The position numbers were made by a program, and so were the translations under genes. 64,000 nucleotides of DNA from an uncultured Ignavibacteriales bacterium. GTDB taxonomy: Bacteria; Zixibacteria; MSB-5A5; GN15; FEB-12. The notes beneath the pieces are model-generated. The model saw only the letters and a program-made list of their open reading frames with translations, made no database searches and was not told the origin of the DNA. Of this stretch, positions 44,980-54,747 are shown one piece after another. Location: positions 74,035 to 138,034 of the forward strand of contig CAZILL010000003.1 of NCBI GenBank assembly GCA_964540105.1. Direction: 5' to 3'. Position 1 is the stretch's first letter, and every line of letters starts with the position of its first letter.

Positions 44980-47900
44980 TTGCGCAATGAATGGGTAAAT
45001 AGCTTTGATCGCACCAATGCCGTCGTTGCGGCAGGGGTCTGGTTCGCGGTCCTTGTTGTTTACTTGATGACCAAGGCCCCGACGGTGACCTTCTGGGACT
45101 GCGGCGAGTTTATCGCCGTCAGTCACATTCTCGGCATTCCTCATCCACCGGGCACACCACTCTATGTTATGATCAGCCGCCTCTTTGCAACCCTTCCTCT
45201 GTACGCAGATCAGGCGGCCCGCATCAATTTTCTGACCGTGCTCTGTTCGTCGATGACCCCGGTCTTCGCGTACTTGAGTGGAGTGCGGATTCTTAGGACC
45301 TGGTTTGTTACCGACAATTCTCCATACTCACGGATGCTGACTTACGCCGGGGCTGCGAGTGGGGCGTTGTTCCTCGCGTTCAGCGCGACAAATTGGGGAA
45401 ATTCAGTCGAAGCGGAAGTTTATGGTATGTCGATGCTCATTTTCGTCAGTGTACTCTGGCTGACCCTTGTGTATCATGAGACTCCCGACGGCCTGCGGGC
45501 TGATGCGATCATGCTCTTTGTGGTCTATCTCGCTTTTCTGGGCATCGCGATACACCCCACGACCTTTCTGGTCCTTCCCATAGCAGCCTTGTTCTTTGTG
45601 GTGAAGAAGGGGGCTCCACGATCAGTCTGGTTTCTTGCGGCCGTATTCATCTTCTTCGAGCTGTTTCTCGTCTTCGCTCTCTCATCGCGACCTGGAGAGG
45701 TCCCATATTTCGTGCCTGTAACCGTGGTCTTGATCTTGTATCTGTTCTACGTGTTCTCGTGCCCAACTATCTCTCGCGCGGCGCTACTCATGGGCATAGG
45801 GCTCCTGGGTTCGGCGGCGCCTTTGGTTGGAGTGCTATCGAGCGCCGTGATCGCTCTCACAAGCGGGTCCGGGGTTCCGACTGAGCCACCATCAGTTCTC
45901 CTCCGGTGGGTAGGCGGAATCAGTTTCGTGGTGACACTTGCGCTCGCACTTTACTGGTCGGCAAGGTATCTGCTATCGCGCGACCAGAGGGGTGAGGAGC
46001 AGCAACACACATTTGTTCCATCGCTTTTCGTCATTGGAGCCGGGGTGATGGCGGCCATTCTCCTGCTCGACAAGCTCCGAGGGTACACGGCATTTGCGGT
46101 TGTATCGATTGCTGTTCTGATCATTGTTGGTTCCGTCGTCAGAAGCCATCTCAGATGGCCGATCCTGATCGCGATGGCCGGCGTTTCACTCGTGGCGCTG
46201 GCTGTTCGCCCCTTTGTGTTGGGGATTGCAGCTTCAACGGCTGTCGTGCTTGTTCTCGGTTTCTACTTCAAGAGTGAGACGTGGAAGGCCGCACTGCTGA
46301 TTATCGTGGCGGCGGGAGTCGGGTATTCGGTGCACCTGTTTGTGCCGATACGGTCAGCACAAGACCCGTACATAAACGAGAACGCCCCCTCCAAATCGAT
46401 CTCGGCTTTTGTCAACTATCTTGAACGAAAACAGTACGGGTCCCAAAGCATGACGTCAAGAATGTTCACGCGGCGGGCAGAGTGGGAAAACCAGTTTGGA
46501 GATTATCGACGGATGGGCTTCTGGCACTTCTTCAGCAATCAGTATGGACTTAACGGACCGAAGTTCTTTGTCCTGTTTGTGCTCGGATTGCTCGGGCTTT
46601 GGGAGGGGATTCGCATTCGATCTCCCTATGGCCTGTTGCTATCACTGCTCATTCTGATCTCCTCGGTGGGGCTGGTCCTGTACATGAATTTTGCGGACGG
46701 TACGCGACAGCATCCGGTAACGGGAGCCGATTACATTGAAGTACGCGACCGCGACTATTTCTTTACACCGGCATTTCTCCTGTTCGGACTCGCGATCGGA
46801 CTCGGCATCTCCGCGACGCTTCAGTACGTCAGGCAGACAATGCTGAGGCTGAACAATCCAATTCGAGGAGTCATTCTCGGAGTCGGCCTGGGGCTGTTTC
46901 TCATACCGGTCTACACGGTGAAGGCAAATTATTTCGAATCGGATCGATCCAATAACTACCTTGCGTATGACTATGCCTGGAATCTTCTGCAGTCAGCGGA
47001 TCCAAACGCCGTTCTGATTACATATGGCGACAATGACACCTTCCCTTTGTGGTGTTTGCAGGAGGCGTTCGGAGTTCGTAAAGATGTCAGGAACGTGAAT
47101 CTCTCTTTGGCAAACACGAAGTGGTATATCAAACAAGTGCGGGACTACATGAAACTTGATCTGGGATGGAATGATCAACAGATCGACAGTCTGCGACCGT
47201 ATCGATCACAAGACGGTCGCGTGTTTCAGATTCAGGATCAGGTGGTCGATGCAATCATCGATCACAACCACGGACGTTTTCCGATCAACTTTTCGGTGAC
47301 TGTGGCCGACGACGGTCGCAAGTATCACGGGCAATCAGCGCGAGATCGGCTGGTACTGAGCGGGCTCAAATGGCGATTTAAGGAGGCGGCCGACGGTATG
47401 GTTGCAGCGGTCGATGAATCGATCCAGTTCTTGGAGTCAGACAAGTTCCAGATGCGAGGTCTGGATGACCCCACGGTATACAAAGATGAGAACATGACGC
47501 GGCTGACATCGAATTACGCCAACGCATTTATGGCTATCGCCGATTCTCTGTCCAACGCAGGACGAGGAGCAGATGCCGAGCGACTCATGAGGAGACTGCA
47601 CGAGAAGATGCCTGACAATTTCGATGCGATCAGCTACCTTGCGAGCCTTTACGCCAACCGCGGACAGGTAGGACCGCTGACTGATCTGGTAGCCGAAACG
47701 CGCAGCGGCGACACGGATTGGCTTCGAACGTTGCTCGGACGTGTCCGGCGAAAGGCAGGAAATAGTTCTGAAGCGGAGGCTATACTTTCTCAGGTGCTCG
47801 GCACGCGGCCATCGTACCGACCGGCCTACGAGGAGCTGATTCGCCTGTATTCCGAGACCAGGCAGATGGACAAGCTCGGGGCGCTCTTTTCCGCATGGTT

Positions 47901-47991
47901 GAAATCGAATCCGGATGACAAGCAAACGCAACGGATCCTCGAAGATATGAAGGCCGGCCGATACGAGCAACGTCCGGCGGAGACCTTGTGA
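44980..47991 (+). CDS. DUF2723-family (TMEM260-like) GT-C membrane glycosyltransferase with C-terminal TPR-like domain
   Basis: Hallmark N-terminal motif [26 protein letters not shown]. More than 10 TM helices over ~600 aa. Large soluble C-terminus ending in helical repeats. TTG start. Confidence 0.75.
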   Translation: [1003 protein letters not shown]

Positions 47992-54017: not shown

Positions 54018-54027
54018 CGCCCGGAGA

Positions 54028-54747
54028 TTGAGCTTGAACGACACAGTTCTGGTCGCAGTTCTGACCTTCAATGAGGGGGAAAAGCTCAAGTCGCTCGTCC
54101 GGCGTTTTCCTCAGGACAAGGGGTATCGCCTGCTTTTCGTCGACGACGGTTCAACTGATAACACACATGAATTCCTTGTCAGCCTCGGACATTGTGTGCT
54201 CCGTCACGAGCGGAACATGGGAGTCGGGTATGGTATCAGAGAGGCAATTTCCTTTGGACGTGCGAACAATTGCGGGATCATAGTAGTGATGGCGGGAAAT
54301 GGCAAGATGCTCCCCGAGGAGATCCCGAGGTTGGTGAATCCAATTCGGGAGGATCGGGCCGACTACGTTCAAGGTTCGCGAAATCTCGAGGGCGGCGTTT
54401 CTCCGCACCTTCCTTTTGGTCGGAAGATCGCCATCCGGCTGTTCACCGAGACGGTCAATCTGTTTCTCGGGAAGCGAACGACGGATGTGACCTGCGGGTT
54501 TCGCGCTTATCGTTTGGATCTGTTCAACGACAAGAGCATTGATCTCGACCAGGATTGGTTGGATCGTTATGAGTTAGAGTACTATATCCACTACAAAGTT
54601 CTCACGGGCGGCTATCGTTTCGCGGAAGCCCCAGTGTCGATGGTCTACCCTGAGGACGGGCAAAACTACTCAAAGATCAAACCGTTTACCGGTTGGTGGT
54701 CCATTCTCCGCCCTTGGATCTTCCTTGTACTGCGAATAAAAAAATAG
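54028..54747 (+). CDS. Glycosyltransferase family 2 (polyprenol-phosphate sugar synthase-like: DPM1/ArnC/GtrB type)
   Basis: N-terminal VAVLTFNEG, DXD motif VDDGSTDNT, and short length (239 aa) without TM helices. Confidence 0.75.
   Translation: MSLNDTVLVAVLTFNEGEKLKSLVRRFPQDKGYRLLFVDDGSTDNTHEFLVSLGHCVLRHERNMGVGYGIREAISFGRANNCGIIVVMAGNGKMLPEEIPRLVNPIREDRADYVQGSRNLEGGVSPHLPFGRKIAIRLFTETVNLFLGKRTTDVTCGFRAYRLDLFNDKSIDLDQDWLDRYELEYYIHYKVLTGGYRFAEAPVSMVYPEDGQNYSKIKPFTGWWSILRPWIFLVLRIKK

Follow-up and report, generated by a model that had tools for sequence, protein, structure and literature searches.

The 64,000-nt stretch analysed in this study, hereafter called the window, is part of contig CAZILL010000003.1 (assembly GCA_964540105.1) of an uncultured Ignavibacteriales bacterium (GTDB lineage Zixibacteria; MSB-5A5; GN15; FEB-12) and carries at positions 44980-54747 seven open reading frames (ORFs) on the plus strand, here termed G1 to G7, that specify glycosyltransferases (GTs), a flippase-like membrane protein and sugar-modifying enzymes. 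A comparison with related genomes revealed that this locus consists of a constant three-gene core, G1-G2-G3, and of a variable slot that can adopt one of several states and is occupied in the window by the accessory cassette G4-G7. The core joins a bacterial protein that is predicted to be related to human TMEM260, a protein O-mannosyltransferase (family GT117), to a GT of family GT4 and to a stand-alone PplT flippase-like protein. We tentatively read the locus, at a likelihood just short of an even chance, as a two-tier periplasmic glycosylation system that would depend on lipid-linked sugars.

The co-directional arrangement and the coordinates of the seven genes proved to be exact in the initial annotation of this DNA, and the domain classes that it had assigned were confirmed for all of them by hidden Markov model (HMM) classification with Pfam and NCBIfam. 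The two GTGA start/stop overlaps described there can be read directly in the sequence, and the intergenic gaps after G3 measure 48, 18, 1 and 10 nt. The features of the locus are as follows:

44980..47991, + strand: G1, GT117/TMEM260-like (DUF2723) GT of the GT-C fold, 1003 amino acids (aa), constant core; match to PF11028 and C-terminal tetratricopeptide repeats (TPR)
47988..47991, + strand: GTGA overlap of the G1 stop codon (TGA) with the G2 start codon (GTG), seen in the sequence
47988..49103, + strand: G2, soluble GT4 (retaining GT-B), 371 aa, constant core; matches to Glycos_transf_1 (E 6e-42) and Glyco_transf_4 (E 1e-18)
49100..49103, + strand: GTGA overlap of the G2 stop codon with the G3 start codon, seen in the sequence; overlap or near-abutment kept in relatives
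49100..50116, + strand: G3, stand-alone PplT/UPF0104 membrane protein resembling the MprF flippase domain, 338 aa, constant core; matches to PF03706 and TIGR00374
50165..52420, + strand: G4, GT-C, 751 aa, first gene of the accessory cassette; match to PMT_2 (E 1e-9)
52439..53449, + strand: G5, Gfo/Idh/MocA NAD-dependent oxidoreductase, 336 aa; Pfam match (E 1e-28)
53451..54017, + strand: G6, left-handed beta-helix (hexapeptide) N-acetyltransferase, 188 aa; assigned from solved relatives
54028..54747, + strand: G7, short GT2 (GT-A), 239 aa, last gene of the cassette; match to PF00535 (E 2e-17)

The distinction between core and slot is based on a tblastn mapping of the window proteins onto loci with homologues of G1 (80 from genomes) or of G2 (80 from metagenomes) and onto five contexts of G4 homologues, cited below by L numbers; the metagenome loci were not de-replicated against the genome loci. 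Homologues of G1 with 45-58% identity occur in metagenome-assembled genomes (MAGs) of Zixibacteria (GN15), a lineage of the Fibrobacteres-Chlorobi-Bacteroidetes (FCB) group. The backbone nusB-G1-G2-G3 was found in 18/18 Zixibacteria genome loci with enough sequence, and G1 lies upstream of G2 in all 50 metagenome loci that extend at least 1.5 kb upstream. Likewise, a PplT gene follows G2 in each of the 18 genome loci and in the metagenome loci with enough downstream sequence, the form in L157 being divergent. Overlaps of 4 nt or 1 nt between G1 and G2 and between G2 and G3 persist at 40-60% protein divergence, and the G1/G2 overlap was also seen in L003, L005, L006, L010, L048, L082 and L085. 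The complete set of seven genes in the same order is present in L082, L083, L010 and at least ten metagenome contigs, with L082 and L083 containing exactly the seven genes of the window between the same flanks. The recurrence of this order in independent Zixibacteria assemblies indicates more than a chance juxtaposition, so that the random assembly of genes considered in the initial annotation is not borne out. The gene for PplT is split in two in L083, and the counterpart of G5 is divided between two ORFs in L081/L086 (CXWL01060530.1), a near-identical strain with 89-99% protein identity; both splits are frameshifts or assembly errors.

A census of the slot downstream of G3 in about 52 informative metagenome loci showed how variable its content is. 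The slot is empty in 14 loci, where the core is directly followed by a pair of genes encoding a 185-aa protein (hyp185) and a LuxR/GerE-type protein, and it contains unrelated genes (HTH/QueT, S41 peptidases, BioY) in ten others. The window-type cassette, consisting of a second GT-C gene followed by Gfo, hexapeptide and GT2 genes (GT-C2-Gfo-Hex-GT2b), occupies the slot in 12 loci, a version of six genes, extended by a further short GT2 gene ('GT2a') and a short-chain dehydrogenase/reductase (SDR) epimerase gene, in five, and GT2a with or without the epimerase, followed by the contig end, in ten. A single locus contains Gfo-Hex-GT2b without the second GT-C. Altogether, the G4-G7 cassette is absent from roughly one quarter to one half of the related loci, and expanded relatives (L006, L085 and L084) combine a GT2 and an SDR epimerase with one or two GT-Cs. 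In the complete Zixibacteria chromosome represented by L084 (CP070766.1, 1580155-1600401), the accessory genes are arranged as GT2a-epimerase-GT-C-GT-C-Gfo-Hex at a distance from G1 and G2, and GT2b is missing; they are preceded by a fragment of PplT of 172 aa, which suggests that the rearrangement broke the ancestral locus inside the PplT gene. Accordingly, the seven genes do not form a single unit, as had been assumed in the initial annotation, since G1-G2-G3 is constant and G4-G7 is optional.

Sequence identity between loci rises and falls in parallel for accessory and core proteins (Spearman rho 0.83-1.0, n=6-7). This co-divergence of cassette and core indicates vertical inheritance with lineage-specific loss and remodelling rather than recent transfer. 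A horizontally transferred island was considered as well and rejected, since the G+C content is even across the locus (0.53-0.55), the flanks are conserved and the accessory genes co-diverge with the core; the term island that had been applied to the locus is thus not indicated in the sense of horizontal transfer.

The largest core protein, G1, combines a multi-pass N-terminal module with a TMEM260_2 region and a soluble alpha/beta domain, and has TPRs at its C-terminus (about residues 837-996, with TPR_19/TPR_14 matches at 914-992). Residues 40-210 match PF11028 with 150.2 bits (E 6.9e-44; gathering cut-off 24.2), and the PF28495 (TMEM260_2) domain is precomputed for a protein identical to G1 (P0001). 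A profile of G1 homologues that was searched against the PDB sequences matched the solved human TMEM260 protein (9rql) with an E-value of 1.7e-21. In the ungapped profile alignment, which pairs position 18 of G1 with position 30 of 9rql, D40 of G1 corresponds to the catalytic residue D52 of TMEM260 and E43 corresponds to E55, and a second aligned stretch (G1 600-719 and 9rql 366-480) spans the TMEM260_2 domain. The first-loop motif WD40CGE43F is invariant, with D40 and E43 unchanged among 22 homologues. The most conserved stretch of G1 beyond this loop, residues 681-707 (window positions about 47020-47100), aligns to its counterpart in human TMEM260. The human protein founds the CAZy family GT117 and is an O-mannosyltransferase of the endoplasmic reticulum acting on IPT domains; its activity is abolished by the exchange D52A, and its TPR domain is luminal (PMC10214176). 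Judged by every sequence-level test of membership applied here, G1 is a predicted member of GT117.

G1 and TMEM260 thus have in common both family domains (PF11028 and PF28495), the first-loop aspartate with the following glutamate, and the succession of a GT-C membrane module and a lumenal or periplasmic domain containing TPRs. G1 differs from the human enzyme in being about 300 aa longer, with extra transmembrane helices and the alpha/beta domain, in its bacterial origin, according to which the carrier would be of the undecaprenyl type and not dolichol, and in having a GT4 and a PplT protein as dedicated partners, for which TMEM260 has no equivalent. A Foldseek search of the PDB copy with the AlphaFold2 model of G1 (predicted local distance difference test, pLDDT, 83.7) yielded no close solved relative, only AglB (E 4e-4) and TPR proteins, and no characterised member of the bacterial DUF2723/PF11028/TMEM260-like proteins was found in the searchable literature. 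The possibility that G1 and G4 are paralogues was rejected (hhalign probability 5%).

The second core gene, G2, is the most conserved gene of the locus, with 58-79% identity across Zixibacteria, and its product contains no transmembrane segment according to a hydrophobicity scan. The nearest solved relatives of G2 are BshA (1e-17), MshA and PimA, the sole full-length NCBIfam match is the archaeal Agl16 model, below its cut-off, and weak matches were obtained to GT4 enzymes of the lipopolysaccharide (LPS) core, for instance lipopolysaccharide 1,6-galactosyltransferase. Residues 11-315 of G3 match PF03706 with 171.5 bits (E 4e-50; cut-off 33.4), and the 'flippase-like' model TIGR00374 with 101.3 bits (curated cut-off 43.2), which places the protein in the PplT/UPF0104/TIGR00374 family as a predicted flippase. 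This family corresponds to MprF's flippase domain and in archaea forms a fusion with the GT2 AglD. A PplT/UPF0104 flippase is also found alongside a lipid glycosyltransferase in the systems GpgSDF of P. aeruginosa, which forms glucosaminyl-phosphatidylglycerol, and HexSDF of C. difficile, which forms an aminohexosyl glycolipid. In both cases a soluble glycolipid synthase, either the GT4 GpgS or HexS, which is annotated as a monogalactosyldiacylglycerol synthase, is followed in the same operon by the UPF0104 flippase GpgF or HexF, as in the G2-G3 arrangement. G2 and G3 differ from these systems in sharing their operon with a GT-C, and no deacetylase gene was found in the window or any related locus. 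Since the order GT4-then-UPF0104 has a published precedent as a pair of glycolipid synthase and flippase, G3 need not serve a GT2.

Outside the Zixibacteria, the same gene classes were detected in differing arrangements. The gene immediately downstream of 49 G1 homologues encodes a GT9 in 12 instances, a GT4 in ten, a GT2 in eight and PplT in six. The order nusB-G1-GT4-PplT-ArnC-like was found in L024, G1-GT4-PplT-ArnC-like in L026 and GT4-PplT-ArnC-like in L035, and nusB-G1-GT4-ArnC-like without PplT in L028 and L030-32, which are labelled Gemmatimonadetes/Latescibacterota or unclassified; the GT2 of L031 matches ArnC over its full length (9e-60). In loci of the Calditrichota/KSB1 type (L056, L059 and L069) the order is GT4-G1-PplT, with a GT2 further on; L059 and L062 stem from MAGs of Caldithrix and Melioribacter. 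One of the Calditrichota/KSB1-type loci, L056 (8084-20188; record labelled Cytophagia, KSB1/Calditrichota-like), contains two tandem GT117 paralogues of 893 and 882 aa in the order methyltransferase, GT4, GT117, GT117, PplT, DUF4837, RmlD-like reductase and a GT2 of 240 aa; no cultured Bacteroidota with GT117 were present among the top matches starting from this locus. Ignavibacteria-type loci show the arrangement G1-GT9, and a GT9 gene, belonging to the heptosyltransferase family, adjoins or closely follows the DUF2723 gene in 12 of them and in L020. Paralogues of G1 without a GT4 or PplT neighbour occur in L013-L019 and L022-L023. The recurrence of GT117, GT4, PplT and ArnC-like or short GT2 genes in differing orders argues for a functional unit. 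The Arn/Gtr-like logic proposed in the initial annotation gains comparative support from the presence of GT4, PplT and GT2 genes beside DUF2723 GT-Cs in other FCB lineages, and these data support a three-component system with G1 as the conserved GT-C, accompanied by the GT4 as an unexplained constant fourth member.

The accessory cassette starts with the second GT-C, G4, that comprises a PMT_2-type N-terminal module (38.9 bits; cut-off 26.1) with an invariant D48 just past the first transmembrane helix and a beta-rich C-terminal domain (534-751). Its AlphaFold2 model (pLDDT 87; predicted TM-score, pTM, 0.89) confidently predicts a GT-C fold. The best Foldseek match was ArnT (5f15, E 2e-6), and Emb proteins, the oligosaccharyltransferases (OSTs) STT3/PglB/AglB and Pmt4 were retrieved as well, all with TM-scores of 0.3-0.4; the similarity to ArnT is generic, as Emb, OST and PMT proteins are equally close. 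A G4 profile gave no match among the PDB sequences, and neither a MIR domain nor an NCBIfam match was found in G4; homologues are named GT39/PMT by NCBI. An exhaustive HMMER scan of 1.84 billion representative sequences yielded 31 G4-like proteins at E<=1e-30, and the named matches are all from Zixibacteria save for a few generically labelled MAGs. By this distribution, G4 appears to belong to a tiny GT-C clade restricted to Zixibacteria.

The next two genes encode candidate enzymes of amino-sugar formation. G5 matches the NCBIfam model of the archaeal UDP-GlcNAc 3-dehydrogenase with E 1e-51 and 176 bits, under the cut-off of 450, and has GnnA (7bvj, E 1e-19) as a solved relative; it is probably a nucleotide-sugar 3-dehydrogenase. 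G6 resembles the solved N-acetyltransferases 7s43/7s3u (2e-50), the WxcM-like protein 4mzu (9e-48), the acetyltransferase of lipopolysaccharide biosynthesis 3mqg (6.5e-40) and QdtC (6.5e-16), which places it by sequence in the class of nucleotide-3-amino-sugar N-acetyltransferases. In comparison with the UDP-2,3-diacetamido-sugar pathway (WbpB/WbpE/WbpD, equivalent to WlbA/C/B; GnnA/GnnB; and the archaeal set), G5 is similar to the 3-dehydrogenase, and the similarity of G6 to the 3-N-acetyltransferase is strong. The locus deviates from this pathway in that G5 scores well below the equivalog cut-off and that the cassette and the window, whose ORFs were scanned from 200 aa upwards across the 64 kb and to smaller sizes in the flanks of the locus, contain no aminotransferase. 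The 'amino-sugar tailoring pair' of the initial annotation therefore stands with respect to the enzyme classes, but the middle enzyme of such a route is missing from the window and from all examined cassettes.

The last cassette protein, G7, has retained the nucleotide motif VDDGSTD and has no hydrophobic stretch reaching the transmembrane threshold. Its named NCBIfam matches are confined to polyprenyl- or dolichyl-phosphate glycosyltransferases (AglJ as the best match, PpgS, DPM, ArnC and PgfS), with scores of 24-58 bits against cut-offs of 325-529 and an E-value of 1.6e-5 for the PgfS model. The catalytic domain aligns with the best solved relatives ArnC (9e-10) and DPMS (3.6e-8). At the DXD site, however, the metal-binding D-A-D-L-Q of ArnC and DPMS is replaced by A-G-N-G-K, which is kept in all G7 orthologues (L082, L083, L010, L048, L006 and L085); the same site reads S-G-D-D-Q in the GT2a paralogues and D-G-D-L-Q in an ArnC-like relative. 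In both G7 and GT2a, the C-terminus is formed by a conserved amphipathic tail, KIKPFxGWWSMxRPWxFLxLRIRK, and not by a transmembrane hairpin. G7 thus represents a distinct subfamily of short GT2 proteins that is possibly metal-independent. Its description as an enzyme of the 'DPM1/ArnC/GtrB type' was appropriate as regards resemblance, small size and solubility, but the DXD site, the transmembrane hairpin and scores above the cut-offs are lacking.

These results, that is the observed gene anatomy, family assignments, conservation of the G1 catalytic residues, modular distribution and co-divergence, form the basis of the two-tier system that we favour, within which we infer the substrates, the donor lipid, the acceptor and the enzyme whose product is flipped by G3. 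In the core tier, the cytoplasmic GT4 G2 would glycosylate a substrate linked to a membrane lipid at the inner face of the membrane, G3 would flip the lipid-linked sugar or sugars, and G1 would transfer a sugar from a lipid-phosphate carrier to an envelope acceptor at the periplasmic side of the inner membrane, with the catalytic aspartate located in the first periplasmic loop. By analogy with the family and in view of the TPR tail, the acceptor of G1 would most probably be serine or threonine residues of secreted or membrane proteins. In the cassette tier, G5 would oxidise a UDP-N-acetylhexosamine (UDP-HexNAc) at C3, an aminotransferase encoded elsewhere would aminate the product, G6 would N-acetylate the resulting 3-amino group, and G7 would load the amino sugar onto polyprenyl phosphate for periplasmic transfer by G4, which would probably decorate the same glycoconjugate.

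Several observations weigh against this scheme. A DegT-type aminotransferase was found neither in the 64-kb window nor in any examined cassette of relatives, and the aminotransferases near some relatives are of class I/II or class IV and lie in unrelated contexts. Lacking both DXD and a transmembrane hairpin, G7 may not be a conventional polyprenyl-phosphate-sugar synthase. Moreover, L048 and L097 contain G5-G7 without G4, and L084 contains GT-Cs with G5 and G6 but no G7, so the pairing of G7 with G4 is not strict. About half of the related loci have no GT2 adjoining the core, and the donor synthase of G1 must there lie elsewhere. The characterised pairs of GT4 and UPF0104 proteins yield membrane glycolipids as end products, not donors for GT-Cs, and the TPR tail of G1 is no proof of a protein acceptor. 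We know of no role of a GT4 in Arn, Gtr or Pgf systems.

The alternative explanations differ mainly in the acceptor. The precedent of GpgSDF and HexSDF, an experimentally characterised arrangement of synthase and flippase, leads to a route resembling that of phosphatidylinositol mannosides and lipomannan, in which G2 would form a glycolipid (e.g. by attaching HexNAc to the head group of a phospholipid, in the manner of GpgS) that is flipped by G3 and extended or decorated by G1 and G4 by means of polyprenyl-phosphate sugars of the G7 type, the acceptor being a lipid. We regard this route as rather unlikely, although it is the sole model that assigns a role to every class (GT4, flippase, GT2 and GT-C) and would account for the GT4 being G1's most constant partner. 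The mannoside pathway offers an analogy with PimA/PimB' as GT4, Ppm1 as GT2 and PimE as GT-C enzymes, and the closest solved relatives of G2, BshA, MshA and PimA, transfer GlcNAc or mannose to small polyols or lipid head groups. On the other hand, the deacetylase of GpgSDF and HexSDF has no equivalent, the GT4 accompanies G1 without PplT in L028 and L030-32, and the only characterised member of the G1 family glycosylates proteins and possesses a TPR domain; to our knowledge, no GT-C with TPR repeats acts on glycolipids. A lipid acceptor of another kind would be involved if G1 and/or G4 added sugars to lipid A or core in the periplasm, as ArnT does, and if neighbouring GT-B enzymes were core glycosyltransferases. 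The best structural match of G4, the GT9 genes near the DUF2723 gene in 12 Ignavibacteria-type loci and L020, the weak matches of G2 to LPS core GT4s and the relationship of G5 to GnnA, which belongs to the GlcN3N pathway of lipid A, are in line with this idea. We consider it improbable, since the ArnT match is generic (TM-scores of 0.3-0.4, and Emb, OST and PMT are no more distant), the adjacency of GT9 is limited to more distant G1 paralogues (25-30% identity), and none of lpx, kdt, waa and msbA was found among the scanned ORFs of the window. Furthermore, LPS is flipped by MsbA, which leaves no obvious role for PplT except in the supply of the donor.

The dispensability of the G4-G7 cassette, the position of the L084 accessory genes apart from G1 and G2, and the G1 paralogues without GT4 or PplT neighbours (L013-L019 and L022-L023) would also be compatible with an operon of convenience, in which G2-G3 produce a glycolipid, G1 performs protein O-glycosylation fed by an unlinked GT2, and G4-G7 form a self-contained Gtr-like unit. 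We judge this to be distinctly improbable, because the translational coupling of G1-G2-G3 has been kept over about 40-60% protein divergence, G1 and G2 are linked in 50/50 loci, and the same gene classes have been re-assembled in other orders in Calditrichota/KSB1-type loci. Finally, classical O-antigen, capsule or exopolysaccharide loci typically contain several GTs along with enzymes that tailor sugar nucleotides. That the genes belong to such a locus is scarcely conceivable, as marker genes (Wzx, Wzy, Wzz, an ABC exporter, the ligase WaaL, an initiating phosphoglycosyltransferase and OPX/PCP) are absent from the scanned ORFs of the 64-kb window, which effectively excludes it there, and the conserved flanks are of housekeeping type in every relative. 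In this respect the initial annotation, which had argued against a classical O-antigen or capsule locus, holds, and its classification of G7 as a short soluble GT2 is in keeping with the lack of transmembrane segments.

The preferred two-tier periplasmic system was furthermore compared with known glycosylation systems. It follows the same logic as Arn (ArnC/ArnD/ArnE-F/ArnT) and Gtr (GtrB/GtrA/GtrV), where a GT2 loads polyprenyl phosphate, a flippase translocates the product and a GT-C acts in the periplasm. Unlike these systems, the locus contains PplT/UPF0104 as the flippase candidate and neither a GtrA nor an ArnE/F gene of the SMR (small multidrug resistance) type, two unrelated GT-Cs together with an obligatory GT4, and a G7 protein without DXD and transmembrane hairpin. 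The Pgf system of Streptococcus mutans, composed of the GT-A protein PgfS, the epimerase PgfE and the GT-Cs PgfM1 and PgfM2, performs extracytoplasmic O-HexNAc glycosylation of Ser/Thr-rich protein regions and is resembled by the combination of GT2, SDR epimerase and one or two GT-Cs in the expanded relatives L006, L085 and L084. The Pgf GT-Cs, however, belong to the YfhO family, whereas GT117 and PMT_2 proteins are present here, and the window lacks the epimerase and GT2a. An archaeal neighbourhood of UPF0104, a PMT/STT3-like GT-C and an AglD-like GT2 has been predicted as a glycosylation system (Makarova et al. 2015). The parts of the ensemble that the initial annotation had regarded as possibly undescribed were confirmed, but a similar set of flippase-like protein, GT-C and GT2 is accordingly on record in archaea. 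The AglD-type modules share the combination of a flippase-like protein, a GT-C and a cytoplasmic GT with the locus, and AglJ is the best NCBIfam match of G7; they differ in the domain of life, in the GT-C families and in a GT2 instead of a GT4 beside the flippase, and the matches remain below cut-offs. The proposed system would function in the manner of Arn, Gtr, Pgf and the AglD modules of archaea, but the locus is a member of none of them. No literature on glycosylation in Zixibacteria was found.

The locus is embedded in a conserved chromosomal context. The order of genes on the 5' side is GAF and hybrid-kinase genes followed by ribD-ribE-ribBA-ribH-nusB, and on the 3' side the membrane-anchored protein of 185 aa and the LuxR/GerE protein of 105 aa are followed by a ZIP transporter, a rhodanese and a MauE/DoxX protein. 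Further features of the flanks are the following:

44459..44887, + strand: nusB, upstream boundary marker outside the system; the rib-nusB-G1 adjacency is kept across several FCB lineages
44919..44948, + strand: promoter-like site TGGACA-16/18-TATATT/TATTAT in the 92-nt gap between nusB and G1, with 10/12 consensus matches
54848..55738, + strand: hyp185 (without Pfam match) and the LuxR/GerE-type protein of 105 aa, which by conserved synteny mark the downstream end of the variable slot

The pair of hyp185 and LuxR/GerE genes is kept in most Zixibacteria loci in which synteny runs past the slot. The hyp185 protein contains an N-terminal membrane anchor, a coiled-coil and a short stretch rich in S/T/N and has no Pfam match, and the 105-aa protein is similar to LuxR/GerE/sigma-70 region 4. 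The promoter-like site is of the consensus sigma-70 type, from which FCB promoters may differ, and is a possible, weak candidate for the operon's own promoter; the total site counts in the promoter and terminator scan were not clearly above those in shuffled sequence. As listed, ribE (42134-42754) and ribBA (42675-43976) share 80 nt; the TTG codon assigned as the ribBA start probably lies too far upstream.

Other genes of the window include a type IV pilus/type II secretion system (T2SS)-like cluster just downstream of the locus on the minus strand (58052-63969; a secretin with STN domain, a T2SSB-like protein, a 187-aa ORF, a PilM-like protein and T2SSF), the secretin-to-PilM portion of which is syntenic in L082 and L083, and a prepilin peptidase (A24) gene on the plus strand at 32354-33136, 12 kb upstream of the glycosylation locus. 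The minus strand also carries, at 2348-6015, two genes for multihaem c-type cytochromes (MtrC/MtrF-like domain, cytochrome c7/c3 and paired CXXCH motifs) around a 527-aa ORF without Pfam match, which may represent equipment for extracellular electron transfer, and, at 10466-14248, a hybrid sensor kinase of 1260 aa with a Tll0287-like sensor, several PAS domains, HisKA/HATPase and a receiver. A second Gfo/Idh/MocA oxidoreductase gene at 9340-10335 on the same strand is unlinked to the locus.

The O-oligosaccharyltransferase for general protein O-glycosylation in Bacteroidetes was still reported as unknown in 2022. A speculative extension of our data, which we regard as improbable, sees in the GT117-GT4-PplT triad an ancient FCB-wide machine whose GT-C would employ, or act upon, a lipid-linked sugar that the GT4 has assembled and PplT has flipped, and not a polyprenyl-phosphate monosaccharide made by a GT2; more speculatively still, the family might be the sought FCB O-glycosyltransferase. 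If this were true, the GT4/PplT route would provide a donor or acceptor in a way that has not been described for any GT-C, and the human TMEM260 pathway would descend from the bacterial triad.

TMEM260 is a human gene of congenital heart disease, and the family GT117 was defined only in 2023. For its bacterial homologues, which comprise thousands of uncharacterised matches, the locus provides a concrete operon context with strictly linked GT4 and PplT genes. This context bears on the ancestral function of GT117, on the substrate of stand-alone PplT 'flippases' and on a possible subfamily of metal-independent short GT2 proteins. The GT117-GT4-PplT core is accompanied by interchangeable sugar-supply modules, and the exchange of cassettes at one fixed chromosomal slot illustrates the diversification of envelope glycosylation in an uncultured phylum.

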